A stretch of 64,000 nucleotides of DNA from Thermoanaerobaculia bacterium (GCA_036001325.1 DASYUK010000480.1:1033-65032); one strand, 5' to 3'. Shown: positions 17,820 through 59,122, counted from the stretch's first letter. The notes: generated by a model from the letters alone, not told the origin. Numbers and translations are program-made.

Positions 17820-18983
17820 ATGCGAATCGGCATCACCTGCTACCCCACCTTCGGCGGCTCCGGTGTCATCGCCACGGAGCTCGGCATCGCTCTGGCCCGG
17901 CAGGGCGACGACATCCATTTCATCAGCTACGCACTTCCGTCGCGTCTCAACATCCTGCTGCACGAGCGCGTGCACTTCCATGAAGTGACCGTCACCGCGT
18001 ATCCGCTTTTCGATCCCTATCCGCCGTACACGCTCGCGCTGGCGACGAAGATGGCCGAGGTGGCGGCGTACGAGAAGCTCGATGTACTTCATGTGCATTA
18101 CGCCATCCCTCACGCCATCAGCGCCTATCTCGCCAAACAGATCCTCGGCGCGCGCGATCTCAAAGTGATCACCACGCTGCATGGAACGGACATCACGCTT
18201 GTCGGTCGCGATGAGAGCTATCTCCCGATCACCAAGTTCGGCATCGAAGTGTCCGATGGCGTGACCGCTGTATCGCAGTGGCTGAAGAACGAGACCGCGC
18301 GCAATTTCGGTACGCAGAAACCGATCGAGGTGATCTCGAACTTCGTCGACCCCGATCGCTTTCAGCATCATCGCAGCGCGTTCTGTCACATGTTCGGCGC
18401 ATCGACCGACAAGCTGGTGTGCCACGTCTCCAACTTCCGTCCGGTGAAGCGCGTCATGGATGTGATCAGCATCTTCGAAAAAGTGTCGCGCGTGGTGCCG
18501 AGCCGTTTGATGATGATCGGCGACGGGCCCGATCGCTCGCGCGCCGAGGCCTATTGTCGCGAGCATCGTCTGCGCGATCGCGTCTTCTTCCTCGGCAACG
18601 TTCCCAACCTCGAAGAGATCCTCGGCGGCAGCGATTTGTTTTTGCTTCCGTCGGAATCGGAGTCGTTCGGTATGGCGGCGCTCGAAGCGATGGCGTCCGA
18701 GGTCCCTGTGATCGCTACGCGCGCAGGCGGGTTGCCGGAAGTGATCGAAGACGGAGTGAATGGATATCTTCTTTCGGTCGGCGACGTCGAGGTCATGGCC
18801 GAGCGCGCGATCGAGATCCTTTCGAACGACGACGTCGGGCGGAAAATGGGCGCGGCCGGCCGCGCCATCGCGATCGAGAAGTTCGCCGAAGAAAAGATCG
18901 TGCCGCGGTATCGGGAAATGTACGAACGGGTGCTCGACCTTGAGCCCTCTCCCACCGGGAGAGGGTGGCCGAAGGCCGGGTGA
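17820..18983 (+). CDS. bshA: N-acetyl-alpha-D-glucosaminyl L-malate synthase BshA (GT4)
   Basis: MRIGITCYPTFGGSGVIATELG... strong match to BshA; last ~13 codons are encoded by the repeat element. Confidence 0.85.
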   Translation: MRIGITCYPTFGGSGVIATELGIALARQGDDIHFISYALPSRLNILLHERVHFHEVTVTAYPLFDPYPPYTLALATKMAEVAAYEKLDVLHVHYAIPHAISAYLAKQILGARDLKVITTLHGTDITLVGRDESYLPITKFGIEVSDGVTAVSQWLKNETARNFGTQKPIEVISNFVDPDRFQHHRSAFCHMFGASTDKLVCHVSNFRPVKRVMDVISIFEKVSRVVPSRLMMIGDGPDRSRAEAYCREHRLRDRVFFLGNVPNLEEILGGSDLFLLPSESESFGMAALEAMASEVPVIATRAGGLPEVIEDGVNGYLLSVGDVEVMAERAIEILSNDDVGRKMGAAGRAIAIEKFAEEKIVPRYREMYERVLDLEPSPTGRGWPKAG

Positions 18984-21931: not shown

Positions 21932-23674
21932 ATGCGCTGGTCACGTTACTTCATCAACACCCTTCGCGAAGTTCCGGCGGACGCCGACGTCATCAGTCAG
22001 AAGCTGATGATGCGCGCCGGAATGATCCGCAAAGTCGCGGCAGGAATCTACACCTATCTGCCGCTGGGATTGCGATCGGTGAAGAAGCTGGAGGCCATCG
22101 TCCGCGAGGAGATGAACCGCGCCGGATCGGTCGAGCTGCTCATGCCGGCGGTTCAGCCCGCCGAGCTGTGGATGGAATCGGGCCGCTGGCAGAAATACGG
22201 GAAAGAGCTTCTGCGCATCAAGGATCGCCACGAGCGCGACTTCGTCTTCGCTCCGACGCATGAGGAGGTCATCACCGAGACCGTGCGCGACGCGATCTCG
22301 TCGTACCGGCAGCTCCCGGTGAATCTCTATCAGATCCAGACGAAATTTCGCGATGAAGTGCGTCCACGCTTCGGCCTCATGCGCGGCCGCGAGTTCATCA
22401 TGAAGGACGCGTACTCGTTCCACACCTCGGCCGAATCCCTCGACGAGGTTTACGGAGCGATGCGCGAGGCGTACACGCGCGTCTTTCATCGCTGCGCGCT
22501 CGATCACGTGCCCGTCGAAGCGGACACCGGAGCGATCGGCGGATTGGTGTCGCACGAATTCATGGTGCTCGCGCAGTCGGGCGAAGACGCCGTGGTCAGT
22601 TGTCCGGCGTGCAAATACGGCGCGAACATCGAGAAGGCGACGTCGAAGTTCTTCAGCGACGAGCCCGAGCCGGCGCCGATGCTGGAGATGGCGCCGCTGC
22701 ATACGCCGGGAACGCAGTCGATCGATGACGTCGGCCGCTTTCTGAACAAGCCCACATCGCAACTCGTCAAGACCCTCGTCTTCGAAACGGAGAACGGACC
22801 GGTGATGGTTCTCGTCCGCGGCGACCGCGAAGGCAACCTGGTGAAGATCAAGAACCACCTCGGCGTGGATATGCTGGAGATGTTGCCCGACAGCCGCTTC
22901 GAAGCGGCGACCGGCGCGCCGGTTGGCTACTGCGGTCCGGTCGGAACGAAATGCGCGCGCGTGCTCGCCGACGTATCGCTGAAAAACCGGAAGAACTGGA
23001 TCGTCGGCGGCAATGTCAAAGACACGCACACGTCGAGTGTGAATCCCGGCCGCGATTTTCCGGAACCGGAGTGGGGTGATTTCACCACCGTCTTTGCGGG
23101 CGATCCGTGTCCTCGCTGCGGCACGCCGCTCGAGATTTATCGCGGGATCGAAGTGGGTCACATCTTCAAGCTCGGGACGAAGTACTCCGACTCGATGCAT
23201 TGCGTCTTTCTCGACGAGAAGGGCGAGCGCCAGCCGATGATCATGGGCTGCTACGGACTGGGCATCGGCCGCACTGTCGCCGCCGCCGTCGAGCAGAGTC
23301 ACGATGACGACGGCATCATCTGGCCGATGCCGATCGCTCCGTTCGAGGTGGTCGTCACCGCACTCGGTCGCGAGGAGGCCGTCGTCCGCACTGCCAACGA
23401 CGCGTACGAAAAGTTACTCGCCGCCGGTATCGATGTGCTCTTCGACGATCGCGATGAGCGTCCCGGCGTGAAGTTCAAAGACGCCGATCTCATCGGCTTC
23501 CCGCTGCGCGTTGCCGTCGGGGCGAAGAGCCTGGCCAACGGTCAGATCGAGTGGAGTTGGCGCAAGGACCGGTCAAAACAACTCGGAGCGCCGGAGGATG
23601 TTGTGGCGCGAGTGGTCGAGGAAGTGAAGAAAGCCCTCTCCCACCGGGAGAGGGCGGCGCGGAGCGCCGGGTGA
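21932..23674 (+). CDS. proS: proline--tRNA ligase (bacterial type with editing insertion)
   Basis: 580 aa; class II aaRS motifs and anticodon-binding C-terminus; last codons overlap repeat copy B. Confidence 0.95.
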   Translation: MRWSRYFINTLREVPADADVISQKLMMRAGMIRKVAAGIYTYLPLGLRSVKKLEAIVREEMNRAGSVELLMPAVQPAELWMESGRWQKYGKELLRIKDRHERDFVFAPTHEEVITETVRDAISSYRQLPVNLYQIQTKFRDEVRPRFGLMRGREFIMKDAYSFHTSAESLDEVYGAMREAYTRVFHRCALDHVPVEADTGAIGGLVSHEFMVLAQSGEDAVVSCPACKYGANIEKATSKFFSDEPEPAPMLEMAPLHTPGTQSIDDVGRFLNKPTSQLVKTLVFETENGPVMVLVRGDREGNLVKIKNHLGVDMLEMLPDSRFEAATGAPVGYCGPVGTKCARVLADVSLKNRKNWIVGGNVKDTHTSSVNPGRDFPEPEWGDFTTVFAGDPCPRCGTPLEIYRGIEVGHIFKLGTKYSDSMHCVFLDEKGERQPMIMGCYGLGIGRTVAAAVEQSHDDDGIIWPMPIAPFEVVVTALGREEAVVRTANDAYEKLLAAGIDVLFDDRDERPGVKFKDADLIGFPLRVAVGAKSLANGQIEWSWRKDRSKQLGAPEDVVARVVEEVKKALSHRERAARSAG

Positions 23675-23734
23675 GGGGCTAGCCTCTCGCCCCTCATCTG
23701 CCGCTTCGCGGCACCTTCTCCCGCCGGGAGAAGG
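23633..23734. repeat. three-hairpin dispersed repeat element, copy B
   Basis: gccctctcccaccgggagagggcgg...gggtgaggggctagcctctcgcccctcatc...caccttctcccgccgggagaagg. Confidence 0.85.
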
Positions 23735-23761
23735 CTCTGAGCGGTCTGCTATCCTTTTCTC

Positions 23762-46548: not shown

Positions 46549-47133
46549 TCACTCGACGCATTTGAAGATACGGCTGAGTCGAACGGTGCTGGTGCGCCGA
46601 TTTTGGCGTGACATCGTCGACGCCTCCGCGGGATGGTCGCCACCCGCCGATGACCAGAGAACTACGCGCACTCGGCCGATCACCAGGTCTCGAGACAGCG
46701 TTCCCCAGCGTCGGCTGTCGAGGGAATCCTCGCGGTTGTCGCCCATCACGAAGAACGAGTCGGGCGGCACCACTTGCGCGGAGATCGCACCGCTCGCGGC
46801 CTGTTTGAGGAGGTATGGCTCGGGGATCGTATGCTCGCCGATGCGCACGCGGCCGGCGCGGCAGTCGATCAGATCGCCGGGCAGCCCGATCACCCGTTTC
46901 ACCATGAGCTGCGATCCATCCGACGGCGCGCGGAACACGACGACATCGCCACGCGCCGGCGATGACCAGCGATACGGCGTGACGAGGATGTGATCGCCGA
47001 TCTCGAGCGAGGGAAGCATCGATGCCGACGGAATCGAATAGATGCTCACCGCGGCGCGAACGCCGGCGGCGAGCAGCACCGCGATCAGCAGCGGCTCAGA
47101 GACGAGGCGAACGACAGACTTCTGCCTTGGCAT
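46549..47133 (-). CDS. lepB: signal peptidase I
   Basis: SASMLPSL (catalytic Ser), VKRVIGLPGD, GDNREDSLDSR motifs. Confidence 0.9.
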   Translation of the reverse strand: MPRQKSVVRLVSEPLLIAVLLAAGVRAAVSIYSIPSASMLPSLEIGDHILVTPYRWSSPARGDVVVFRAPSDGSQLMVKRVIGLPGDLIDCRAGRVRIGEHTIPEPYLLKQAASGAISAQVVPPDSFFVMGDNREDSLDSRRWGTLSRDLVIGRVRVVLWSSAGGDHPAEASTMSRQNRRTSTVRLSRIFKCVE

Positions 47134-47176: not shown

Positions 47177-48838
47177 TCAGCCCGTTGAGGCGTGCAGCGT
47201 GTCGCGAGCGTATTGCCCCTGCGACTCGCCGGCGCCGAGCACGACATGAACGGGCATCTTCTGCTGCAGACCCTTGAGCGCGAACTCGCCGAGGGACTGA
47301 GTTTGGAAGCTGCCGACGATGCGCTCCAGTGTGTTCTGGGAGATCACCAGTTGTCCGGGCTTGGCCACACCGCTCTCGAGGCGCGAAGCGATGTTCACCG
47401 CGCTGCCGAGGACCGTGTAGTCGACGCGCTTCTCGGTGCCGACGTTGCCGACGACCGCCGGACCGCTGTTGACGCCGACGCGGATCAGCACCTTCGGCAA
47501 GCCCTGCTTCTCGCGCTCGGCGTTCCACTCGCCGACAAGCTGCTGCATCATCAGACCGGCAAGCACTGCGCGATCCGCGTGGTCATCCTGCGGAATCGGC
47601 GCACCAAAAAAGGCCATCACCGCGTCGCCGATGAATTTGTCGAGCGTTCCGCCGTAAGCGAAGATCGATTCCACGGCGCATGAGAAGAAGTGCGAAAGGA
47701 ACTCGGCGACTTCTTCCGGTTTCTTTGTTTCGGAGACTGTCGTGAACCCCGAGATGTCGGCGAACAGAATGGACACTTCCCGGCTGCGAATCTCCGTCTC
47801 ACTCGTGGCGACGACCCCCTTCACGATCTCGTCGACGACCGCGGGGGAGTGATAGCGCTCCATCTTCGAACGGATCTTCTGTTCGTGTTCGATCTTCTCG
47901 TTGAGTTGCGCACGCTCGATCGCTACCGCTCCGAAGTTTGCGAGGGCGGTCAGCAGATCGAGATCCTCTTCGGTGAAACGACCGACGTGAATGCGCGAGT
48001 CGACCTGCACGGCGCCGATGACGCGATTGCGGTTCCAGAGCGGCACGCACATCGCCGAGCGGATACCGTGAATGGCGATCGATTTACCACCGAGGAGCCG
48101 AGCGTCCTCGAGCGCGTTGGAGGTCATCAGCGCGACCTGCTGCTCGGCGACCATCTTCAGAATCGTGCGCGAGATCGGGATGTCCTGCGCATCCGCGTCG
48201 TCCATGAACTTCGTCAGCTTCGGCACCGGATTGCCGGCCTCATCGAAGAGGATGATCAGTCCGCGCTCGACCGGCAGGTACTTGAAGATCATGTCCATCA
48301 CGGTCTGGAGAAGCGAGTTGAGGTCCTCGCTCTGCAGCATCGCTTTGGCGACCTGCACGAGCACCTGAAAGATCTTCTCGCGCGTGACGCCGGGCGCCGG
48401 TTTCAGACCGGGCTCGGATGGGACGCGCACTTGCGGCTGCGCCGCCTCGGCCATGTCGAGACCGAACTCGGAATTGAAATCGGAGATCCGCCGGATGACG
48501 GTGCCCGATGCGTTCTCGAACATGGAATCGCCGGAGAAGTCGACGGAGGGGAGCAATTTCACGTCGAGCTGTACTGAACCGACGTGAATCACATCACCCG
48601 AGTTGACCTGCGCCTCGGTGATCAGATTGCCGTTGACCTTCACTCCGTTGGTCGATTTGAGGTCGATGATCCACCAGCGGTTATTGCGTGGCTCGAAGCG
48701 AGCGTGCTTTCTCGAAACGGAAGGGTGATTGAGAATCAGGTCGTTCCCCTCGGTTCTGCCGATCGAAAGGGGAGCCTTCAAATCAGTCACCCGCGGTACG
48801 CCGAGGTCGACGTAATGGACCTGGAGTTGTTCGGTCAT
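47177..48838 (-). CDS. FHA + GAF + class III adenylate/guanylate cyclase
   Basis: FHA (SIGRTEGNDLILNHPSVSRKHARF), GAF, and cyclase (VSILFADISGFT...FIGDAVMAFFGAP) motifs; start at MTEQLQ. Confidence 0.85.
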   Translation of the reverse strand: MTEQLQVHYVDLGVPRVTDLKAPLSIGRTEGNDLILNHPSVSRKHARFEPRNNRWWIIDLKSTNGVKVNGNLITEAQVNSGDVIHVGSVQLDVKLLPSVDFSGDSMFENASGTVIRRISDFNSEFGLDMAEAAQPQVRVPSEPGLKPAPGVTREKIFQVLVQVAKAMLQSEDLNSLLQTVMDMIFKYLPVERGLIILFDEAGNPVPKLTKFMDDADAQDIPISRTILKMVAEQQVALMTSNALEDARLLGGKSIAIHGIRSAMCVPLWNRNRVIGAVQVDSRIHVGRFTEEDLDLLTALANFGAVAIERAQLNEKIEHEQKIRSKMERYHSPAVVDEIVKGVVATSETEIRSREVSILFADISGFTTVSETKKPEEVAEFLSHFFSCAVESIFAYGGTLDKFIGDAVMAFFGAPIPQDDHADRAVLAGLMMQQLVGEWNAEREKQGLPKVLIRVGVNSGPAVVGNVGTEKRVDYTVLGSAVNIASRLESGVAKPGQLVISQNTLERIVGSFQTQSLGEFALKGLQQKMPVHVVLGAGESQGQYARDTLHASTG

Positions 48839-48956
48839 TCGAGACGAAGAATTATATCCGGTAGTAGATGTTAAGCCGCTCGTGGGCGGGGATCGCAATG
48901 CACCGAATAACGTATAATCGCCGTTCGTCCAGCAGATTAGGGATCGTTCCGGAAAA

Positions 48957-50021
48957 ATGAGCGAGCAAGCGACGGCCACAGGTGTCGTTCCCTCAGGGCC
49001 ATTCGTGGTCCGGGCGGTTCTGCGCACGGATGTCGGACGCGTTCGCTCCGAGAACCAGGACTTCGGGACGCTCACGACACCGGCCGAAGACAAGGGCGCG
49101 CATCCGGGCGGGCGGTTGATGATCGTCGCCGATGGCATGGGCGGGCATCGCGGTGGAGCCACGGCGTCGCGCCTCGCCGGCGAGACGATCAAGTCGTATT
49201 ACCTCGGCGGTGGAACCGACGATATCGCCGGCGCGCTTCGCGAGGCGTTGACACGCGCAAACTCGCTGATCTTCGCCGAGGCGCAGACGCATGCGGAATT
49301 GCACGGGATGGGAACGACGACTTCAGCGCTGGTCGTGCGTGGGAATGAAGCCTGGTTTGCGCACGTCGGCGACTCGCGCATCTATCTGATCCGCGGCGAT
49401 GAGATCAATCAGTTGACGGATGATCACTCGCTCGTCGCAACGATGGTCCGCGAAGGGTTGCTTACGGTGAAAGAGGCGGAGAATCATCCGCGACGAAACG
49501 TGCTCCAGAGATCGATAGGCGTCGGTGCGGAGGTGGAAATCGACGTGCGCGGGCCTCTCGAGGTGCAGCAGGGCGACACGTTCGTTCTCTGCAGCGACGG
49601 TTTGCACGGCCTCGTCAAACCGGAAGAGATCAAGGAGATCGTTGCGAACCGGCAGATCGAAGCGGCCGCCGACGATCTGGTCGATCACGCTCTCGAACGC
49701 GGCGCGCCCGACAACGTGACCGTGATCGTTGCGCGAATCGAGCGCGAGGATTTCGACGATGAGCCGACGGTCGTCGACCGCGAGCCTGATCGGGTAGCGT
49801 TCGACGATACGGTGCGGGAGGAGCGTCTCAGTGGAGCGCCGGTGTCCTCACCGGCGGTGCGTGACGCCGGTGAGGACACCGGCGCCCCACCGAGCACCGC
49901 CCCTCCCCGTCGCATCCGTGGATCAACGATCATCAAATGGATGTTGCTCTTCGTGGTCGTGCTCGGTGCGGCCGGCGCGTGGTTGTTCTTTGCCCAGCAG
50001 CAGATGTTTCATATCCGTTAG
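48957..50021 (+). CDS. PP2C-family Ser/Thr phosphatase with C-terminal TM segment
   Basis: RSENQDF, MIVADGMGGHRGG, CSDGL, ERGAPDNVTVIV motifs. Confidence 0.9.
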   Translation: MSEQATATGVVPSGPFVVRAVLRTDVGRVRSENQDFGTLTTPAEDKGAHPGGRLMIVADGMGGHRGGATASRLAGETIKSYYLGGGTDDIAGALREALTRANSLIFAEAQTHAELHGMGTTTSALVVRGNEAWFAHVGDSRIYLIRGDEINQLTDDHSLVATMVREGLLTVKEAENHPRRNVLQRSIGVGAEVEIDVRGPLEVQQGDTFVLCSDGLHGLVKPEEIKEIVANRQIEAAADDLVDHALERGAPDNVTVIVARIEREDFDDEPTVVDREPDRVAFDDTVREERLSGAPVSSPAVRDAGEDTGAPPSTAPPRRIRGSTIIKWMLLFVVVLGAAGAWLFFAQQQMFHIR

Positions 50022-50025
50022 TCAC

Positions 50026-51666
50026 ATGTCCCCGTCTCGCCATCTCCGCCTTTTAGCCATCGTTGCAGTGCTTGTGCTCTCGTGCCGAAACGACGCGGTG
50101 CGGCTCGACGAAGTGCAGAAGATGGCCTACAGCGTGAAGCCGGCCGTTGTGCGCGTGAACGCGCTCGGCACCGCCGAGTTCCGGTACACGAGAAAGTCGA
50201 TCGAATCGGTCGAGCGGCAGCTCCGCAGCGATCGACGAAACGTCACCGCACGGAATCTGCCGGATGGCGAGGCGGCAGTCGATACCGGTGCCGGAGGCTC
50301 AGGCAGCGGCTTCATCATCAATCCGGACGGCTACATCCTGACCAACGGCCACGTCGTCGCTCCGACGAGCGACAATGCCGCGCTCGATCGCGATCTGCGC
50401 CGCAATGGAGCCATCGCCGCGCTCGTCCGCCATTTCCCGGTCGAAGAGCTGCGCGCTCTCTATCGCGATGACGCGCTGGATCATTACATCGACATGCTCG
50501 CCGCCGCGGGTCATCTGTCCGATGTGCGCATCGTCAACGAAGTCGAGCTGTCGAACGGCGAGAAGCTGCCGTTCCGCATCGGACGTTACTCCCCTTCGCT
50601 CAGCGAGCGCGGCGCCGATCTCGCGCTGCTGCAGGTCAACCGGCGCAACTTGCCGGTACTTCGTCTCGGCGATTCAGAGACGGTGGGCGTAGGCGCATCG
50701 ATCTGGTCCGTTGGCTATCCGGCGGTCGCGAGCAGCACCGACGATGTGATCGGCGGATGGCTGTCGCGTGACAGCGATCTCGAAGCGACGTTCAACCCCG
50801 GCACGATCACAGCGATCAAGCGCAACGTCGCCAATGCGACGGTGTTTCAATCGAACGTCGCGATTTATCGCGGCAACTCCGGCGGTCCGGCGGTGAACCG
50901 CGAGGGCGAAGTCATCGGCATCTCCACCTGGGGACACACGAGCGCGGAGCAGATCAAGTTCCTCGTGCCGATCAACGCTGCGAAGTCGTTCGTCGCATCG
51001 GCGCGCGTGAAAGCAAACGTCGAAGGAGAATTCGATCGCTACTACCACGCGGCGCTCGACGCCGCCGCAGCGGGAGAGTGGAAATCGGCGAAGGCCAGTC
51101 TGGCCGATGCCTCGCGCCTCTTCCCGAATTCTCCCGACGTGATTCGCTTCAGCCGCGACGCCGACCGCGCGTTGACGCACGACTCGTCGTGGCCGGCGAA
51201 GTCGATCACCGTCGTCGCGGGTGGGGTCGGTTTCGTCGCCCTGATCGGAACGATCGCATTGGCGGCCGGCAGCAGGCGAACGCGCGTTCCCAAAGACGTC
51301 CTGACGGCGACGACGGTCGTCGAGACGCTCGTCGAGCCGTCCGATTCCACCTCGCGGAAACGAAATGTCATCGGGAAATTCACGATCCTGAATGGCGAGC
51401 GAGCGGGCGAGAAACTGGGCCTGGGCGGCTCGGGAATCCGCATCGGACGGGAGTCGGCGATCTGTGAGATCGTATTGGAGAATCCGAAGGTATCGCGTCT
51501 CCACGCCGAGGTTGTCTCGATCGACGGCAAGGTGATGTTGATCGACAGGAATTCCTCGAACGGAACCTACGTCAACGATGAAAAGATCGATCGGCGATAT
51601 CTCCAGGACGGCGACATCATCCATTTCGGCGGCCGCAACGCCATTGCGGTCGCCTTCCATGCGTGA
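50026..51666 (+). CDS. trypsin-like (S1C) serine protease with TM segment and C-terminal FHA domain
   Basis: GSGFIINPDGYILTNGHVV (His), GNSGGPAV (Ser) protease motifs; C-terminal IGRESAICEIVLENPKVSRLHAEV...SSNGTYVN FHA. Confidence 0.8.
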   Translation: MSPSRHLRLLAIVAVLVLSCRNDAVRLDEVQKMAYSVKPAVVRVNALGTAEFRYTRKSIESVERQLRSDRRNVTARNLPDGEAAVDTGAGGSGSGFIINPDGYILTNGHVVAPTSDNAALDRDLRRNGAIAALVRHFPVEELRALYRDDALDHYIDMLAAAGHLSDVRIVNEVELSNGEKLPFRIGRYSPSLSERGADLALLQVNRRNLPVLRLGDSETVGVGASIWSVGYPAVASSTDDVIGGWLSRDSDLEATFNPGTITAIKRNVANATVFQSNVAIYRGNSGGPAVNREGEVIGISTWGHTSAEQIKFLVPINAAKSFVASARVKANVEGEFDRYYHAALDAAAAGEWKSAKASLADASRLFPNSPDVIRFSRDADRALTHDSSWPAKSITVVAGGVGFVALIGTIALAAGSRRTRVPKDVLTATTVVETLVEPSDSTSRKRNVIGKFTILNGERAGEKLGLGGSGIRIGRESAICEIVLENPKVSRLHAEVVSIDGKVMLIDRNSSNGTYVNDEKIDRRYLQDGDIIHFGGRNAIAVAFHA

Positions 51667-52310
51667 GGGACAAAGTGGCCGATAAACGATGTGAGAACGG
51701 GCACTTTATCGACGAGTCGTGGGACCTCTGTCCTTACTGTCCGGCGGAGAGTGGCGAGCAGGACATCGCCGTCGTTCGTCCCGCGCGTGCCGTTCCTCCT
51801 TCAGCGCCGGCAGTGGAGCCCTCTCGACCGGTGACGGCAGTGCCGGGAGTGCCGCGGCGCCAGACTCCGCAGCCGGTGCAGGCTCCGCCGCCGGTCCAGA
51901 CTCCGCCGATGGAGCGAACGGTCGCGGTTCCGAAGGCCGTCGATCCCGCAGCGCAAACGAAGCGCTATGTCGTGGGCTGGCTCGTCGGCCTCAATGGCAC
52001 GAGCCGTGGCGAATCGTTCGCGATTCGCATCGGCCGCAATGTTCTCGGCCGCGACCGCCGCTCCGACATCGTGGTCAGCGACGATCAGGCATCGTCGCAT
52101 CACGCCGATCTCGTCTTCCGTCCCGAGGAGCGGCGTTTCATTCTGATGGATCACAACTCCACGAACGGGACGTATGTCAACGAAGTCGAAATCGAGCCGC
52201 GCCGCGATCTCATCGGCCAGGACGTCATCCGGATCGGCTCGCAGAAGTTTCTCTTCATGCCGCTGATTCAGGACGGCTTCTACTGGGACGATGAAGGTGC
52301 TCTGAAATGA
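51663..52310 (+). CDS. zinc-ribbon + Pro-rich linker + FHA domain protein
   Basis: CENGHFIDESWDLCPYCP ribbon; C-terminal IGRNVLGRDRRSDIVVSDDQASSHHADL...STNGTYVN FHA; ATGA overlaps on both sides. Confidence 0.75.
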   Translation: MRDKVADKRCENGHFIDESWDLCPYCPAESGEQDIAVVRPARAVPPSAPAVEPSRPVTAVPGVPRRQTPQPVQAPPPVQTPPMERTVAVPKAVDPAAQTKRYVVGWLVGLNGTSRGESFAIRIGRNVLGRDRRSDIVVSDDQASSHHADLVFRPEERRFILMDHNSTNGTYVNEVEIEPRRDLIGQDVIRIGSQKFLFMPLIQDGFYWDDEGALK

Positions 52311-53518
52311 TCGGAAACGTCATCGGCAATTACCGCATCGAGCGCGAGATCGGCGAAGGCGGGATGAGTCACGTCTACGTTGGTCGCACGACGGGGGCGA
52401 CAGAGATCCTGCCCGCGAATTACGAGGTCGTGCTCAAAGTGATGTCCGACGATCTGGCCGGCGAGATCACCGCGCGCAAGCGCTTCGTCAAAGAAGCACA
52501 GATCCTCTCGAAGCTGCGCCATCGCTACATCACGCGGTTCTACGAGTTCATCAACAACGAGAGCGGCGCGGTTCTGATCATGGAGTTCGTCGAAGGGATT
52601 CCGGTGGACCTCTTGATCGCGGAGCAGGGGGCGCTGGCGGTTCGCGACGCCGTTTCGATTGCGCAGTGCATGCTGGAGGCGCTCGTCTACGCTCATGGCA
52701 AAGGCATCGTTCATCGCGATATCAAACCGGCCAATCTGATTCGCGAGAGCTCCGGCGCAGTGAAAGTGACCGACTTCGGCATCGCCAAGATCAAAGAGGG
52801 CGCCGGCGCAACCGGACAGACCGTGCTCACGAAATCGGGATTCCTCCTCGGCACGCCGCATTACATGTCGCCGGAACAGATCCGCGAGCCGAAAGACGCC
52901 GGCGTGAAGTGCGACATCTATTCAGCGGGCGTTGTGCTCTACGAGATGCTCACCGGCGCGCTGCCGTTCAACAGCCGCTCGCTGCCCAAGCTGATCGACG
53001 CGATCTATCGCGGTGAGAAACAGCCGCCCAGCACCGTGCGTCCGGAAGTCGACAAGGAGCTCGAGGCGATTGTTCTCAAATCGATGCATCCGCGTCACGA
53101 GCAGCGTTATGAGACGGCTCGCGAGTTTTACGAGGCGCTCGAGGAGTACAACGCCAAGCAGCCGGTAGCGAGCATGCCGACGGCCCGCGTCGTGGCGCAA
53201 GGAGCGCCGGCGCCCGCGCAGCCGCAGTGGATGCTGGTCCCGGTGAAGAACGACTCGACCGAGAAGCATGCGATCAACGGCCAGAGCGTGATGGTCGGGC
53301 GCGATCGCACATGCTCGATCGTTCTGTCGCATCCGGCGGTGTCACGGCGTCACGCTCGTATCACGCTCAGCGGCACGGCGTGGGTCCTCGAGGATCTGCA
53401 GTCGGCGAACGGGACGTACGTGAACAACACGCGCGTCGACAAGGTGAAGTTGAAAGCCGGAGATGTGGTGCGATTCGGTGCGGACCCGGCGTGTACCTAT
53501 GTATTGAGAGATCACTGA
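52307..53518 (+). CDS. Ser/Thr protein kinase with C-terminal FHA domain
   Basis: Hanks motifs (GEGGMSHVY, HRDIKPANL, DFG, SPE) and FHA (VGRDRTCSIVLSHPAVSRRHARI...SANGTYVN). Confidence 0.9.
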   Translation: MIGNVIGNYRIEREIGEGGMSHVYVGRTTGATEILPANYEVVLKVMSDDLAGEITARKRFVKEAQILSKLRHRYITRFYEFINNESGAVLIMEFVEGIPVDLLIAEQGALAVRDAVSIAQCMLEALVYAHGKGIVHRDIKPANLIRESSGAVKVTDFGIAKIKEGAGATGQTVLTKSGFLLGTPHYMSPEQIREPKDAGVKCDIYSAGVVLYEMLTGALPFNSRSLPKLIDAIYRGEKQPPSTVRPEVDKELEAIVLKSMHPRHEQRYETAREFYEALEEYNAKQPVASMPTARVVAQGAPAPAQPQWMLVPVKNDSTEKHAINGQSVMVGRDRTCSIVLSHPAVSRRHARITLSGTAWVLEDLQSANGTYVNNTRVDKVKLKAGDVVRFGADPACTYVLRDH

Positions 53519-53614
53519 CGCCTTCTCCCCGCGGGAGAAGGTGGCGCGAAGCGCCGGATGACGGGCGTGCCCCTCACCCGGCCGTGCGGCCACCCTCTCC
53601 CGGAGGGAGAGGGA
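53519..53614. repeat. three-hairpin dispersed repeat element, copy C (inverted orientation, middle hairpin degenerate)
   Basis: ccttctccccgcgggagaagg...ggatgacgggcgtgcccctcaccc...caccctctcccggagggagaggg. Confidence 0.8.
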
Positions 53615-53627
53615 ACTTGGAGTAACC

Positions 53628-55388
53628 ATGAGCCAGATAACCCAGATCACCTGCTTACGCTGCAAGCAACCCATCGACTCCGCACTCGATCAATGCCCCG
53701 CCTGCGGCGAACGCGTCACGAGCTTCCAGCGGACGTACTCAGCGCGTCTGATCGACGGCAAGTACCAGATCCTCGATCGGCTCGGCGTCGGCGGAATGGG
53801 CGAGATCTTCAAGGTCCGCCACATTCACCTGAACGAGCTGCGCGTCATCAAGATCATGAGGCCGAACGTCGCCGCCGATGATCAGGGCTTGCATCGTTTC
53901 CTTCAGGAAGCGCGCACCTCCACGACGATCAAGCATCGCAATCTCGCGATGCTCTACGACTTCGCACAGCTCGATGACGGCTCGTACTACATGGTGTGGG
54001 AGTTTATCGACGGCGTGAACATTCAGAAGTGGATCGCGACCAACGGCCCGGCGCCACCGCGGCTTGCGGTCGAAATCGCTGTCCAGGCGCTCACCGGTCT
54101 TGATCACCTCCATTCGATGGGGCTGATCCACCGCGACATCTCGCCCGAGAACATCATGTTGTCGCAGGACCATCACGGAAAACTGCTCGTCAAAGTGATC
54201 GACTTCGGCATCGCCAAGTCGCTCGCCGAGGGTGAAGCGGGTCAGGGGCTGACGCAGACCGGGATGTTCCTCGGCAAACTCAAATACGCATCGCCGGAGC
54301 AAGCGGGATATCTCAAAGAAGGCGAACACCTCGATCCGCGCAGCGATCTCTACTCGTTCGGCATCGTGATGTACGAGATGCTCGCGGGACGCGCGCCGTT
54401 CCAGGCGACCAATCCGCACGGTTACATCCTCAAGCATGTGACAGAGAAGCCGGCGCCGATCGCCGAGACGAATCCGCAGGTGCGCGTGCCGCCGCAACTC
54501 GAGTCGATCATCATGAAATCGCTCGAGAAAAGCCGCGACAATCGCTTCCGCACCGCAGGTGATTTCGCAAACGCGCTGGAAGCGGTGCGCGCTTCGATTC
54601 CTCCCGATCAGAAATATGGCCTCGGCGAGCGGATGGTGACGCTTTCCGCAGCGAAGACTCTTGCCGAACTGCCGAAGTACACCGGCACCGTCGGGACGAT
54701 GGGCAGTCAGCCGACGCAACAAACCTTCGCCGGACAGCAGCAGACGCATCGCACCTCGGTGACACCATCGCAGAACGAAGCGACGATGGTGACGAGTCAG
54801 GTTGCGCAGCAGCGGCCGACGCTCGGCAGCAACGACGCCACGATGGTCGAGCGCCTCGGCACGCAGGGAAGTGCGGCGCCCACCGCTGTCGAGTCGAAGT
54901 TCGGCGCGGCCGAGCCGACGCTCATCGGGCGCCTGTATCCGCAGAAGAAGAACAGGGCTGTCATCGGCGCGATCGCAGCGGCATTGATCATCGCCATCGC
55001 GATCGCCGCCTACGTCGTGACGCGACCGACGACGAAGCCGCCGGTCGTGACCGAGACCGGAGCCACGAGCGGAGCAATCGTGACGTCGACGGCGACCCCG
55101 CCCGTGCCGCGCGACCGCGGCGTGCTCCTGCTTTCGGCATCTCCGTGGGGCGACGTCGAGAAGATCGTGAACATGTCCAATCACAAAGCCGTCGATCTCA
55201 CCGAGGAGAAGCGCTCGACGCCGACCGCCATCGAGCTCGATCCCGGAATGTACTCCGTGACCGTGCGCGGACCGAATGCCAGTAAGACCGTCGACGTGAA
55301 CATCGAGGCCGGCAAGCGGACGCGCCAGCGGATCGAAACCGCAAGCGTGAACTACGACGAGCTCGAAAGGGAAGTGAAGCCCCAATGA
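53628..55388 (+). CDS. Ser/Thr protein kinase with N-terminal zinc ribbon, TM segment and C-terminal PEGA-like domain
   Basis: CLRCKQ...CPACG ribbon; HRDISPENIML, DFGIAK kinase motifs; C-terminal VLLLSASPWGDVEKI PEGA-like. Confidence 0.9.
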   Translation: MSQITQITCLRCKQPIDSALDQCPACGERVTSFQRTYSARLIDGKYQILDRLGVGGMGEIFKVRHIHLNELRVIKIMRPNVAADDQGLHRFLQEARTSTTIKHRNLAMLYDFAQLDDGSYYMVWEFIDGVNIQKWIATNGPAPPRLAVEIAVQALTGLDHLHSMGLIHRDISPENIMLSQDHHGKLLVKVIDFGIAKSLAEGEAGQGLTQTGMFLGKLKYASPEQAGYLKEGEHLDPRSDLYSFGIVMYEMLAGRAPFQATNPHGYILKHVTEKPAPIAETNPQVRVPPQLESIIMKSLEKSRDNRFRTAGDFANALEAVRASIPPDQKYGLGERMVTLSAAKTLAELPKYTGTVGTMGSQPTQQTFAGQQQTHRTSVTPSQNEATMVTSQVAQQRPTLGSNDATMVERLGTQGSAAPTAVESKFGAAEPTLIGRLYPQKKNRAVIGAIAAALIIAIAIAAYVVTRPTTKPPVVTETGATSGAIVTSTATPPVPRDRGVLLLSASPWGDVEKIVNMSNHKAVDLTEEKRSTPTAIELDPGMYSVTVRGPNASKTVDVNIEAGKRTRQRIETASVNYDELEREVKPQ

Positions 55389-56431
55389 AACGCGTGCGAC
55401 TGATCACGATTGCGCTATGCGCGGTCTTGACGGCCGGCGTGGCGCTGGCCTCGTGGTACGACGACTACGACGCGGGACTGAAGGCATTGCACGACGGCCA
55501 ATTTCAGGTCGTGGTGCAGAAAATGACCTCTGCGCTGAGCGGCAATTCGAAAGAGAGCAACAACGCTCGTACGTACGGCGCCATCTTCATCAACTACCAC
55601 CCCTACTACTACCGGGGGGTCGCGTACATGAACCTCGGGAAGTACAAGGAAGCAGAGGCTGATCTGGAAAGGACCAGCGGTCCGGGGGCGGTCGACCGCG
55701 GTTCAGTCGATGCCTTGATGCGAGAAGTGAAGGCGAAGCTTGCCGAGGTGAGCACGCAGCCGCCAGTCACGGAGACAGTTCGACCGGTGCCGACGCAGAC
55801 TGTCGCACCGCCGCCGATCACTCCAGCGATGGACAACGCATTGCGCTCACGCGCAGAGAGAGCGGTCGGCGAAGCTCGATCTCATCTGCAGAGCGCGCAG
55901 CAGCGGAGGGCCACCGCTTCGCCTGAGTACGGAAAAGCGCTCGACCAATTCAGCCAGATGAACACGCGCTTCGCGAACGCGAAATCGAACGACGACCTGA
56001 ACACCGTTATCGCGATGACGGACAACGTGATCATGTACGCCGACTCCGCGCAGGCGGCGGCCGTTGCGGTCACGACGACACAGCCTCCGACGACCTCGAC
56101 CGCGCGCGCGACTTCCGCTACGCAGGCCGTGCTGGGCGACACAACGCGTCGTCTCCGCCGTGCCTTTCAGAATTACTTCAACGGTGATTTCGACGAAGCG
56201 ACACGCGACTTTCAGTCTCTCGCGAACGACATGCCCAAGAACGCCTGGATCTGGGCGTTTCTCGGTGCGTCGCAATATTCGCAGTACGCGTTCGAAGCGG
56301 ACGAGACGTACAAGGCCTCGGCGATCAGCGCGTTCCGCAAAGCGAAGGCGTACGGAAAGTGGAAGGACGGTCTTCCCGAGAAATACTTCTCGAAGAAGAT
56401 CCGCAAAGCCTTCAAAGAAAACGCGGGCTAA
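55385..56431 (+). CDS. hypothetical secreted TPR-like protein
   Basis: Signal peptide; helical repeat composition; ATGA overlap with kinase gene. Confidence 0.45.
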   Translation: MKRVRLITIALCAVLTAGVALASWYDDYDAGLKALHDGQFQVVVQKMTSALSGNSKESNNARTYGAIFINYHPYYYRGVAYMNLGKYKEAEADLERTSGPGAVDRGSVDALMREVKAKLAEVSTQPPVTETVRPVPTQTVAPPPITPAMDNALRSRAERAVGEARSHLQSAQQRRATASPEYGKALDQFSQMNTRFANAKSNDDLNTVIAMTDNVIMYADSAQAAAVAVTTTQPPTTSTARATSATQAVLGDTTRRLRRAFQNYFNGDFDEATRDFQSLANDMPKNAWIWAFLGASQYSQYAFEADETYKASAISAFRKAKAYGKWKDGLPEKYFSKKIRKAFKENAG

Positions 56432-56437
56432 AAAATG

Positions 56438-56463
56438 GAGGACAGGCGATCTCGCCTGTCCTC
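56438..56463. terminator. 11-bp stem bidirectional terminator between convergent genes
   Basis: gaggacaggcg atct cgcctgtcctc. Confidence 0.6.
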
Positions 56464-56959: not shown

Positions 56960-59122
56960 ATGTCGCGATTGTCACGCGTGAGACTGCCGCGTTGGACGCT
57001 CGTCATCGCGGTCATCGCGTTCATCGCGATCGAGTCGTTCTTCGGCTATCTCGCCTTCCTCAATTACCGCCTATCCCGGGAGCTGGTTCACGGGAGTTGG
57101 CGCGATCCCACCGTCGTAGTGTCGGCCGCGGGAAGGCGGGAGCAGGAGGTCATGCGCCTCTACGGCGTCGACTGGAGAGTGACGGCGCCAGTGAGCCTCG
57201 ATTCCCTCCCGCGCTACGTGTCTGAAGCCTTCATCGCCGCCGAGGATGTTCGGTTTCGGCACCATGTGGGCGTCGACCCGATCGGCATCATCCGCGCGCT
57301 CATCGCCAATGTGCGCGGTGGTGGGATCGTCCAGGGCGGCAGCACGATCGATCAGCAGATCATCAAATCGCGCTTCCTGTCACAGGAGAGAACGTGGCGC
57401 CGAAAGTTCGTGGAGTTGTTACTGGCTGTGATTCTCGAGGCGCGATTGAGCAAGGACGAGATCCTCGAGCTCTACCTCAACGAGGTCTACCTCGGCCACT
57501 CCGGCGGCAGCCCGGTTCTCGGCGTCGACGAAGCTTCGCGTCTGTATTTCGCGAAGCCGGCGGAGCGTTTGCGCGTCGACGAAGCGGCGCTCCTGGCCAG
57601 CATCATCCGCGCTCCCAATCGTGACAACCCGCAAAAGCGACCCGATCTCGTGCGTGCCCGGCGCGACGCCATCCTGCGCGTGATGCTCGATCATCGTTGG
57701 ATCGATGACGCGGACTATCGCAGCGCTGTGGCGCGCCCGGTCGACTTCGTCGGCGGCTCAGTGCCCCAACCGCCGTTTCCTTACTACCTGCGCGCAGTGC
57801 GATCGGAGATCGTCAAGCGAATCGGCGTTCGCTCCGTCATCGAAGGCGGGCTGACGATCGTCTGCGAGATCGATCCCGTGGCGCAGCGTGCCGCCGAGCG
57901 CGTGGCCTTGCGCGCGCCGGAGCAGCTCGAGTCGCGATTCTCCTGGATCCGCGCGCAGTCGCGGCAGGAACCGCTGGAGGTGGCGATTCTCTCCGTCGAT
58001 CCGCGCAGCGGAGGCATTCGCGCGCTCGTCGGCGGTCGCGACTTCCGCCTCTCGCCGTTCGATCGCACGACGAACATGCGCCGTCAGCCGGGATCGGCGT
58101 TCAAGACGTTTGCGTACCTTGCCGCGATTGCGTCGCGGCGCGTGACCACGGCGTCGCTGTTGCTCGACGCGCCGGTCAAGATCGAGCTCAATGATCGCGA
58201 ATCGTGGACGCCGCAGAATTACGACGAGCGCTATCGCGGCCGGGTGACTCTGCGCGAAGCATTCGAAGCGTCGCTCAATGTGCCGACCGTGCGCATGACG
58301 CAGCAGGTGGGACTCAGGCGCGTCGTCAACACCGCGGAGAAGTTCGGATTCACCGAAGATCTCGCCGCGATTCCGGCGCTGCCTCTCGGCGTGACCGAAG
58401 TCTCGATGCGCGAGCTCACCGCCGCCTACACACCGTTCCCGAATCTCGGCGTGCGCGTCGAACCGTATCTGCTGACGGAAGTGCGCGACCGGCATGGCCA
58501 GACGCTGTTCCGCAACAAGCCGCAGGAGAAGCGCGTGTGCGAATCGGACGTCGCGTATGTCATGCACTCGCTTCTGCGCGGCGTCGTGCGCCGCGGCACC
58601 GCATCGCGCCTGAAGCGTTATGGCCTCGCGTACGTCGCGGGCAAAACCGGCACGACGAACGATTATCGCGACGCGTGGTTCGTCGGTTACACACCCGACA
58701 TCGTGACGACCGTCTGGGTTGGCTTCGATCACGGCGCACCGCTTCGCCTTTCGTCAGCCGAGGCAGCGATTCCGATCTGGGGAGCGTACATGGCTGCCGT
58801 TCCGCACATTCACGGCGAGCCGAAACCTCCCGCCGGCGTCACATTCCGCGACATCGATCCCGACACGGGCATGCTGTGGGATGAGGGATGTCCTGGTCCG
58901 GTGCATGAGGTTTTTCTCGACGGCACGGCACCGACGCGACATTGCCCGCGCGGCTTCTTCGGCGGCATCATCCGCCGCGTGTTCTTCGACCGCGAGAGCT
59001 TCGACGAACCACCGGCCATCACGTTCGAGAAGTTCCGCGAGTGGGCGAACGAGGTAGATAGGAATCGGAAGGATGTGGAGGGGTTCTTAGGACGACTCAG
59101 GAGAATATTTGGAAAAGATTAG
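56960..59122 (+). CDS. mrcA: bifunctional class A penicillin-binding protein (GT51 transglycosylase + transpeptidase)
   Basis: EDVRFRHHVGVDP, GGSTIDQQ (GT51) and SxxK/SxN/KTG (SAFKTF...KTGTTND) motifs. Confidence 0.9.
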   Translation: MSRLSRVRLPRWTLVIAVIAFIAIESFFGYLAFLNYRLSRELVHGSWRDPTVVVSAAGRREQEVMRLYGVDWRVTAPVSLDSLPRYVSEAFIAAEDVRFRHHVGVDPIGIIRALIANVRGGGIVQGGSTIDQQIIKSRFLSQERTWRRKFVELLLAVILEARLSKDEILELYLNEVYLGHSGGSPVLGVDEASRLYFAKPAERLRVDEAALLASIIRAPNRDNPQKRPDLVRARRDAILRVMLDHRWIDDADYRSAVARPVDFVGGSVPQPPFPYYLRAVRSEIVKRIGVRSVIEGGLTIVCEIDPVAQRAAERVALRAPEQLESRFSWIRAQSRQEPLEVAILSVDPRSGGIRALVGGRDFRLSPFDRTTNMRRQPGSAFKTFAYLAAIASRRVTTASLLLDAPVKIELNDRESWTPQNYDERYRGRVTLREAFEASLNVPTVRMTQQVGLRRVVNTAEKFGFTEDLAAIPALPLGVTEVSMRELTAAYTPFPNLGVRVEPYLLTEVRDRHGQTLFRNKPQEKRVCESDVAYVMHSLLRGVVRRGTASRLKRYGLAYVAGKTGTTNDYRDAWFVGYTPDIVTTVWVGFDHGAPLRLSSAEAAIPIWGAYMAAVPHIHGEPKPPAGVTFRDIDPDTGMLWDEGCPGPVHEVFLDGTAPTRHCPRGFFGGIIRRVFFDRESFDEPPAITFEKFREWANEVDRNRKDVEGFLGRLRRIFGKD

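Follow-up and report, generated by a model that had tools for sequence, protein, structure and literature searches.

A predicted periplasmic protease with a cytoplasmic FHA domain in a Ser/Thr kinase operon of Thermoanaerobaculia

Introduction

Can proteolysis on the outer side of a bacterial inner membrane be switched by threonine phosphorylation on its inner side? This question is raised by a locus (nucleotides 47177-56431) in a 64,000-nucleotide stretch of DNA, called the window here, from a Thermoanaerobaculia bacterium (GCA_036001325.1, DASYUK010000480.1:1033-65032). The locus consists of a gene for an FHA-GAF-adenylate cyclase and a divergent six-gene operon, which runs from a PP2C phosphatase through a trypsin-like protease fused to a transmembrane (TM) helix and an FHA domain, a zinc-ribbon-FHA adaptor (ZnR-FHA), a soluble serine/threonine kinase with a C-terminal FHA domain (STK-FHA), and a bitopic receptor-type kinase (STK2) to a secreted TPR-like protein. 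We know of no downstream effector for most bacterial Hanks-type kinases, and periplasmic HtrA proteases are, as far as is known to us, controlled from their own side of the membrane, by PDZ domains and peptides of unfolded proteins. We propose, with a probability of roughly 0.5, that the operon encodes a self-contained, membrane-embedded phosphothreonine (pThr) signaling module in which the periplasmic protease would be the effector, switched from the cytoplasm. An earlier, sequence-only reading of the window had suggested that the protease is coupled to pThr marks set by the adjacent kinases; the canonical FHA domain, the intact protease, the recurrent kinase, FHA, and PP2C neighbors, and the conserved Thr motifs described below support this suggestion at the level of sequence comparison.

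The protease-FHA fusion protein

Pfam models assign a Trypsin_2 domain (94.7 bits) and an FHA domain (68.8 bits) to the protein. In 41 related loci its open reading frame (ORF) is matched by one tblastn segment that spans 95% or more of the query, so that the fusion, initially read as one gene, is indeed one gene and not two. An artefact of two genes or a frameshift was considered and is ruled out by the continuous ORF and its single aligned segment in these loci. An AlphaFold2 (AF2) model, built on 44 divergent homologs (mean pLDDT 89), places a hydrophobic N-terminal helix, a two-barrel protease, an insert, a hairpin, the TM helix, a disordered linker, and the FHA domain in this order along the chain (Table 1). 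The best Foldseek matches are the protease domains of HtrA1, DegP, and MucD (E-value of 1e-15 to HtrA1, target-normalized TM-score of ~0.8), the sequence matches in the PDB are HtrA/DegP proteins, and the nearest proteins over sequence and fold searches together are HtrA1, DegP, DegQ, and MucD. No PDZ domain was matched in the protease by Pfam at E ≤ 0.01, its place being taken by the helical hairpin, the TM helix, and the FHA domain, and the protein stays below the cut-offs of the established families (98.6 versus 416.2 bits for TIGR02037 and 51 versus 423 bits for DegS). Among 44 members with 25-60% identity, residues H109, D198, and S285 of the protease and G474, R475, S490, H493, and N512 of the FHA domain are invariant or nearly so. 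The insert between the catalytic His and Asp (aa 108-161), which the model predicts with high confidence, is kept throughout the family and occupies the position of the regulatory LA loop of DegP.

The N-terminus ends in a conserved lipobox cysteine (Cys21) in Thermoanaerobaculia, and distant members have ordinary signal peptides. After the TM helix follows the basic motif RRTRVPK, which agrees with the positive-inside rule. The protease is predicted to be extracytoplasmic and the FHA domain to be cytoplasmic, whether or not the signal is cleaved. The AF2 model and the basic motif are thus in line with the topology that the sequence-only reading had put up for checking, namely a periplasmic protease with its FHA domain in the cytoplasm.

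All four FHA domains of the locus score well above the PF00498 cut-off of 20.7 bits (cyclase 70.8, protease 68.8, ZnR-FHA 61.4, and STK-FHA 82.6 bits). Each of them keeps the GR...SxxH...NG signature (SRKH, SRLH, SSHH, and SRRH), and the pThr-binding Arg and Ser residues are lacking in none. A degenerate, phospho-independent FHA domain was ruled out on the same grounds, the pThr-binding residues being intact in all four domains and, in the FHA domain of the protease, invariant or nearly so among the 44 members. The four domains lie within 6.3 kb, close to the 6 kb first estimated, and hidden Markov models (HMMs) built from the locus proteins found no further FHA domain, kinase, PP2C, or protease of this family in the 64-kb window. 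The cluster is therefore a real local concentration, since the rest of the window is without FHA matches.

Distribution and genomic context

The best relative, with 93% protein identity, and 45 further loci stem from metagenome-assembled genomes (MAGs) of Thermoanaerobaculia and Acidobacteriota. In a word-indexed search, more than 120 full-length relatives were matched (65-93% identity), all of which carry Trypsin_2 and FHA in one protein, and an exhaustive search of 1.84 billion cluster representatives yielded 152 matches at E < 1e-30. When the 86 long ones among these representatives (clusters at 50% identity) were scanned, Trypsin_2 was present in 85, FHA in 82, and both in at least 81. A profile of the distant members matched 870 clusters (90% identity) at E ≤ 1e-20, the source names of which include Geobacteraceae, Deltaproteobacteria, Candidatus Eisenbacteria, and "bacterium HR13". 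Because these clusters are so numerous and stem from several phyla, the architecture is widespread in uncultured bacteria, and the first impression that a protease-FHA arrangement is uncommon had to be given up.

The gene order PP2C, protease-FHA, ZnR-FHA, STK-FHA, STK2, TPR-like is kept in 46 Thermoanaerobaculia loci wherever the contig allows. Outside this class, all six distant loci with Pfam labels have the protease-FHA gene in one operon together with genes for a Pkinase, a PP2C, and a small FHA protein, which often has a zinc ribbon; in these distant cassettes (Geobacteraceae, Ca. Eisenbacteria, and others) the gene order differs and the flanks are unrelated. Eleven further FHA-type metagenome loci, a count that leaves out L067 as too short to judge, comprise five full or truncated cassettes, two loci with a kinase only, and four with nothing nearby.

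Two side observations concern single loci. A Ca. Eisenbacteria cassette (L052:7001-10187) contains two tandem protease-TM-FHA paralogs together with a kinase, a PP2C, and a ZnR-FHA. In the closest relative (L001, DASXRT010000250.1), identity to the window is a mosaic, with the TPR-like protein and PBP1A at 100%, both kinases at 99%, the protease at 93%, the PP2C at 84%, and the ZnR-FHA at 80%; this mosaic and the wholly different upstream genes suggest either that the operon contains a recombination breakpoint or that the MAG contig is chimeric.

Kinases, phosphatase, adaptor, and secreted protein

The phosphatase matches the Stp1/IreP model NF033484 (248.3 bits, cut-off 230) as well as the Pfam models PP2C_2 and PP2C, and it contains the metal-binding motifs DGMGG, GDSR, DG, and DNVT. 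Its C-terminal TM anchor is kept in orthologs; among the distant cassettes it is found in L051-L053 and is missing from the shorter PP2C of L055. STK-FHA has the kinase motifs GEGGMS, VVLK, HRDIKPAN, DFG, and SPE, and its catalytic loop is conserved in 41 sequences. STK2 carries GVGGMG, VIK, DFG, and SPE. A PEGA domain had been assigned to this second kinase, an assignment that found no profile support: the isolated ectodomain gave no PEGA match (PF08308) at E ≤ 10, its best match being CarboxypepD_reg (E = 0.044), and the conserved ectodomain motif SASPWGD...TP...L.PG.Y..T (35 orthologs) merely resembles PEGA.

At least 90% conservation in an alignment of 38 adaptor orthologs is reached only by the zinc ribbon, the motifs RTVA and RYVV.WL, and the FHA domain. 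Full-length orthologs of the adaptor are encoded in four distant cassettes (L052, L055, L058, and L060; E-values of 1e-23 to 1e-28). ZnR-FHA would serve as a competing or bridging adaptor and is possibly a phospho-switch of the GarA type.

The TPR-like protein has a signal peptide (aa 1-22, ...VALA/SW) and a single repeat (aa 74-96) that stays below the model cut-offs (27.0 versus 27.8 bits for TPR_1 and 23.2 versus 27 bits for TPR_2). It is the fastest-evolving gene product of the operon, with ortholog identities of 32-61% compared with 59-83% for the protease. In four Geobacteraceae-type cassettes (L051:8637-10435, L053:8641-10778, L054:8638-10426, and L056:8676-10714), the extracytoplasmic tail of the bitopic kinase is long and of low complexity and has W-K-I-[DKR]-[KR] as its conserved C-terminal end, and the gene right after the kinase encodes a conserved, beta-rich lipoprotein of ~170-180 aa with a lipobox Cys and no Pfam match. 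For the periplasmic protease, both this kinase tail and the lipoprotein come into question as candidate ligands or substrates.

Candidate phospho-acceptor motifs

In linker alignments of 35-41 orthologs per protein, the cytoplasmic linkers are variable apart from short Thr-containing islands. The islands of the adaptor are ERTVAV and KRYVVGWL, with G[KR]TV[VI][FY], ATRIF, KTRLE, and RKTVLL as their counterparts in distant cassettes. Between its kinase domain and TM helix, STK2 has three [DE]ATVMER-type repeats and a PTQQT motif, and the linker of the protease carries T(T)-VET-V-P just inside the membrane. The activation loops of both kinases are Thr-rich as well (LTQTG and TVLTKSG). The islands and the activation loops are natural candidates for FHA docking sites.

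Sister proteases with other cytoplasmic tails

An HMM of the protease, insert, and hairpin separates the family, which gives one match of 220-445 bits, from ordinary HtrA proteins, which give two fragments of ~40 and ~90 bits. Across this family, the part after the TM helix varies: it can be an FHA domain, a rhodanese plus cNMP_binding tail (complete in six loci, L066, L071, L074, L077, L079, and L082), or a double zinc ribbon (L085). In L064 a rhodanese tail is present and the sequence ends before any cNMP domain. Pairwise alignments continue without a break past the protease and into the TM region (26-29% identity, E-values of 2e-22 and 3e-27), and the cNMP domain of L077 has a typical GE.AL...RSA phosphate-binding cassette. 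No cyclase gene was seen beside the cNMP-tailed relatives at the two loci inspected (L071 and L077).

Because the alternative tails are ligand-binding input domains, they are most simply read in terms of a cytoplasmic tail that receives the input and a protease that provides the output, and the family comparison suggests this direction of signaling. Within the conserved core of the operon, the protease is the only enzyme that is neither a kinase nor a phosphatase, and no transcription factor or other DNA-binding output is encoded.

A model of inside-out proteolysis

In the proposed module, STK2 would respond through its variable ectodomain, possibly together with the secreted TPR-like protein. 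Aided by the soluble STK-FHA, it would phosphorylate the Thr motifs, namely its own [DE]ATVMER repeats, ERTVAV of the adaptor, and T-VET of the protease linker. The FHA domain of the protease could then dock on pThr and thereby gather or re-orient the HtrA-like domains across the membrane, or free an autoinhibited tail, such that periplasmic proteolysis would be switched inside-out. The membrane-anchored PP2C would reset the system, and ZnR-FHA, STK-FHA, and, where present, the FHA-cyclase may compete for or extend the same pThr marks. The protease would likely act on the ectodomain of STK2 or on the secreted TPR-like protein, which is replaced by a lipoprotein in other lineages, and other envelope proteins are possible targets.

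On a wider scale, we put forward more tentatively that the family is an undescribed, widespread class of bitopic periplasmic proteases set by interchangeable cytoplasmic tails (FHA for pThr, cNMP-binding plus rhodanese for cyclic nucleotides, and zinc ribbons), of which the FHA subgroup might represent the first proteolytic effector dedicated to signaling by Hanks-type kinases in bacteria. If true, Hanks-type kinases would gain a direct, transcription-independent output across the inner membrane. A regulatory domain on the membrane side opposite to its protease would then also be a new route by which cytoplasmic signals reshape the envelope, and the cNMP-tailed sister group could tie cyclic-nucleotide signaling to periplasmic proteolysis. 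The finding furthermore opens a functional way into a class of soil Acidobacteria that has been little studied.

Several points weigh against the proposed module. All relatives come from MAGs or metagenome sequences, and the evidence is comparative throughout; that a binding event would pass a monomeric TM helix and reach the protease domain through clustering is an assumption borrowed from HtrA oligomer biology. Of the 17 distant FHA-type loci, four are without a kinase, PP2C, or FHA gene in the available flanks and two have a kinase only, so that operon linkage is frequent and not obligatory. The residue at position +3 after the candidate Thr varies (V, E, A, F/Y). Finally, the catalytic loop of STK2 reads HRDISPEN (window 54129-54152, aa 168-175), with HRD(I/V)SPEN in 36/36 sequences, and the replacement of the catalytic-loop Lys by Ser makes the activity of this kinase uncertain; to go by its loop, STK2 may have weak activity or serve mainly as a phospho-scaffold. 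In the distant cassettes L051 and L053-L056, the kinases have the usual HRDIKP.N.

Alternative explanations

As the main alternative, the signal could run outside-in, with the protease clipping the kinase ectodomain or the secreted partner and so turning the receptor kinase on or off, and the FHA domain only tethering it to the phosphorylated, active receptor, for example, for negative-feedback shedding. Every cassette does combine a bitopic kinase with a lineage-specific extracytoplasmic part and a secreted protein or lipoprotein, which offer themselves as substrates close at hand, no other gene product of the operon evolves as fast as the TPR-like protein, and FHA docking on kinases is established for PknB/GarA and PpkA/Fha1. 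We consider this direction unlikely given the cNMP- and zinc-ribbon-tailed versions: as these have no neighboring kinase, a role as a tether to a kinase is not general, and it may be particular to the FHA subgroup. The probability is lower again for a role in envelope housekeeping, in which the operon would be the local counterpart of the FhaA/FhaB-PstP-PknA/PknB cell-wall cluster, the protease would serve protein quality control, and the FHA domain would localize it, for example, at the division site. A class A penicillin-binding protein (PBP) gene 0.5-2.5 kb downstream of the operon in 27 related loci, an RlpA-like DPBB+SPOR gene after the Geobacteraceae cassette, and signal peptidase I beside the cyclase speak for such a role. 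The flanks outside Thermoanaerobaculia are unrelated, however, and synteny within one class may merely reflect common descent. In the window, moreover, the PBP gene begins ~0.5 kb past a strong hairpin and is for this reason taken as a separate transcription unit.

A lack of any functional coupling, such that the FHA tail binds unrelated partners or acts phosphate-free like YscD of the type III secretion system and the clustering with kinases is incidental, appears very improbable to us. The Yop-YscD_cpl model also matches the protease tail (49.5 bits) and four distant loci are orphans, but PF00498 outscores this model on the same tail, the canonical pThr-binding residues are invariant, and the four-gene set recurs in shuffled order across phyla. 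We give slightly less credence still to an anti-phage or conflict system, that is, kinase-based defense as in PD-T4-6, Stk2, or MADS with a protease as effector. PADLOC models for the PD-T4-6/mad6 kinases, the Pycsar cyclase, and the RT-protease match the kinase, cyclase, and protease domains of the locus, yet these matches are generic, as the models would score with every Hanks kinase or class III cyclase; PADLOC gave no match for ZnR-FHA or the TPR-like protein, and the defining partner genes of these systems are absent. The neighbors (PBP1A, MetH-like) are the same in dozens of species genomes, base composition does not shift at the locus within the window, and the protease faces the periplasm, whereas phage replicates in the cytoplasm. 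With only generic domain matches to its credit, the defense-system reading was set aside.

The neighboring adenylate cyclase gene

The FHA-GAF-adenylate cyclase was expected to link pThr signaling to cyclic nucleotides. It is encoded divergently from the operon, as had been read, and where present it would be a second FHA-bearing client of the same kinases; the link is weak, since of 46 related loci only 18 have the cyclase gene, accompanied by signal peptidase I, next to the operon. None of the five closest relatives has a cyclase gene within 8 kb, and in L001 the upstream genes are instead TPR, GT2, GH26, and GGDEF-EAL. The cyclase was ruled out as a core component on this count, and on gene neighborhood it is an optional neighbor outside the core. 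Signal peptidase I travels with the cyclase in related loci; like the PBP, it has an envelope function, but the linkage to PBP and LepB is seen only within this class.

The true start of the cyclase gene is the ATG at 48838 and not the start of the 671-aa ORF. The motifs FADISGFT, DKF/GDA, DYT, and NIASR are present and cover the metal Asp, the transition-state Asn/Arg, and the Lys/Asp adenine pair, the substrate residues being assigned by motif only. The divergent region has a perfect TATAAT on each strand (48913-48918 on the plus and 48851-48856 on the minus strand), and a consensus promoter scan of this region found no full -35/-10 pair. The TATAAT on the cyclase side ends 12 nt before the ATG, a distance so short that it suggests a very short or absent leader.

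Layout of the locus

Genes were called by ORF listing, inspection of start codons, and Pfam and NCBIfam scans, which reproduced the gene and domain positions read before (Table 1). Translational coupling by ATGA overlaps, earlier taken to run through the operon, holds at two junctions only, 52307 (ZnR-FHA/STK-FHA) and 55385 (STK2/TPR-like); PP2C and protease are 4 nt apart. The ZnR-FHA gene could start with a GTGA overlap at 51663, and the GTG at 51675, 8 nt past the protease stop codon, is the probable start because ortholog conservation begins at VADKRC and GAGGGA precedes this codon. The hairpin past the last gene probably marks where the transcription unit ends. Neither the Rfam scan nor the tRNA scan gave a match in the window.

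An element of ~100 bp resembling repetitive extragenic palindromes (REP) or miniature inverted-repeat transposable elements (MITE) lies between the kinase genes, in which two hairpins CCYTCTCCC-NNN-GGGAGARGG surround GGCGCGRAGCGCCGG. The core palindrome of this dispersed repeat has five sites in the window (0.05 expected), and the element at 53519-53627 aligns with copies at 23623-23745 and 18947-18963.

Table 1. Features of the locus, with positions counted from the first nucleotide of the window
Feature	Position (nt)	Strand	Basis or remark
Signal peptidase I	46549-47133	-	44 bp downstream of cyclase
FHA-GAF-class III adenylate cyclase, 553 aa	47177-48838	-	Pfam; start ATG 48838
Cyclase domain (Guanylate_cyc, PF00211)	47240-47785	-	99.7 bits
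GAF domain of cyclase gene	47918-48325	-	59.7 bits
FHA domain of cyclase gene	48578-48766	-	70.8 bits
Divergent intergenic region, 118 bp	48839-48956	.	Sequence reading
PP2C Ser/Thr phosphatase (Stp1/IreP), C-terminal TM anchor	48957-50021	+	Pfam, NCBIfam
PP2C catalytic part	~49026-49733	+	
PP2C TM anchor	~49929-49994	+	
Trypsin_2-TM-FHA protease, 546 aa	50026-51666	+	Pfam, AF2, Foldseek
Lipobox signal peptide of protease	50026-50088	+	Cys21
Protease domain, aa 29-325	50110-51000	+	His109 (50350), Asp198 (50617), Ser285 (50878)
Helical insert between catalytic His and Asp, ~55 aa, aa 108-161	50350-50510	+	AF2 model
TPR-like three-helix hairpin, aa 335-386	51028-51183	+	AF2 model
Protease TM helix, aa 391-414	51196-51267	+	AF2 model
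Disordered linker, ~30 aa, with RRTRVPK and TATTVVETLVEP	51268-51366	+	AF2 model
FHA beta-sandwich of protease, aa 448-545	51367-51660	+	Pfam, AF2 model
Zn-ribbon/Pro-rich linker/FHA adaptor (ZnR-FHA)	51675-52310 (alternative start GTG 51663)	+	Pfam, ortholog alignment
Zn ribbon CENGH...CPYC of adaptor	51690-51740	+	
Conserved Thr island ERTVAV of adaptor	51912-51929	+	
Conserved Thr island TKRYVVGW of adaptor	51957-51980	+	
FHA domain of adaptor	52041-52238	+	Pfam
Soluble Hanks-type kinase with C-terminal FHA (STK-FHA)	52307-53518	+	Pfam, motifs
Kinase domain of STK-FHA	52331-53113	+	Pkinase, 162.5 bits
FHA domain of STK-FHA	53291-53479	+	82.6 bits
Gap with dispersed REP-like element, 109 bp	53519-53627	.	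Pattern scan
Zn-ribbon-Pkinase-TM-ectodomain, bitopic receptor-type kinase (STK2)	53628-55388	+	Pfam, motifs
Zn ribbon of STK2	53652-53705	+	
Kinase domain of STK2	53763-54548	+	Pkinase, 150.8 bits
[DE]-A/P-T-hydrophobic repeats in the cytoplasmic juxtamembrane linker of STK2	54777-54791, 54834-54848, 54912-54926	+	35 orthologs
TM helix of STK2	54963-55019	+	
Beta-rich ectodomain of STK2, ~90 aa	55119-55385	+	
TPR-like protein with signal peptide	55385-56431	+	Weak TPR matches, hydrophobic N-terminus
Hairpin, 11-bp stem, 6 nt past the final stop codon of the operon	56438-56463	.	Terminator-like scan
Class A PBP	56960-59122	+	TIGR02074, 542 bits (cut-off 509)

Comparison with known systems

The system is a variant within known kinase/PP2C/FHA signaling and HtrA-like proteases, and its architecture is undescribed in the literature searched. 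A full-text search returned no description of a Trypsin-TM-FHA protein or of the operon and only one catalog entry, Bacteroides thetaiotaomicron NP_811686.1, an FHA-FHA-Trypsin protein in a 2008 protease survey (PMC2605481). This entry, the sole published mention found in which a bacterial protein combines FHA and trypsin domains, differs from the present protease by its reversed order, with the FHA-FHA part N-terminal, and was listed without operon context, topology, or function. In Deinococcus radiodurans, DRA0331-0334 encode a vWA protein, a TM kinase, a FraH-like FHA protein, and a PP2C, and the last two were shown to have opposing effects on the phosphorylation of the kinase (bioRxiv 10.64898/2026.01.23.701218). 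Both systems share a four-gene cassette made up of a kinase, a small FHA adaptor, a PP2C, and one extra component; the extra component is a vWA protein in Deinococcus, where the PP2C has a KI-FHA, and a protease-TM-FHA protein here, where the PP2C has a TM anchor.

With HtrA, DegP, and DegS, which are its best sequence and fold matches, the protease shares the chymotrypsin fold, the His-Asp-Ser triad, the GNSGGP motif, and the periplasmic location. Unlike them, it lacks a PDZ domain, its catalytic His and Asp are separated by a helical insert of ~55 aa, and its protease domain is followed by a TPR-like hairpin, the TM helix, and the FHA domain in the cytoplasm; its regulation would be cytoplasmic, whereas theirs relies on periplasmic peptides acting on PDZ domains.

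The actinobacterial cluster FhaA-FhaB-PstP-(RodA-PbpA)-PknA-PknB combines a PP2C with a TM anchor, Hanks kinases, among them a bitopic receptor kinase, and FHA proteins that dock on pThr, and it is not known to contain a protease. A TM-anchored PP2C, a bitopic kinase, FHA proteins, and a nearby peptidoglycan synthase are also found at the locus described here, in which, however, a periplasmic protease and a kinase each carry a fused FHA domain, PASTA domains are absent from STK2, and the FHA proteins reach 48-69 bits with the FhaB equivalog model (cut-off 125). In the threonine phosphorylation pathway of the Pseudomonas aeruginosa type VI secretion system (T6SS), PpkA-PppA-Fha1 and TagQRST switch a trans-envelope machine post-translationally by means of a bitopic kinase, a PP2C, an FHA protein, and periplasmic or lipoprotein factors. 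The present operon resembles this pathway in its bitopic Hanks kinase, PP2C, FHA proteins, and periplasmic or lipoprotein accessory factors; the output in P. aeruginosa is T6SS assembly via a soluble FHA scaffold, whereas the window is without T6SS genes and the TagH model stays far below its cut-off on the window proteins.

Two further comparisons concern FHA domains as receivers of kinase signals. Rv1747 of Mycobacterium tuberculosis is an ABC transporter and, like the protease, a membrane effector with cytoplasmic FHA domains under a Hanks kinase. GarA/OdhI is a small FHA protein whose N-terminal T-x-V-F-type phospho-acceptor folds back on its own FHA domain; the ZnR-FHA linker motifs ERTVAV, GKTVVF, and ATRIF appear to resemble this phospho-acceptor. 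In these systems the effector is a transporter or a metabolic regulator; in the operon described here, it would be a protease.

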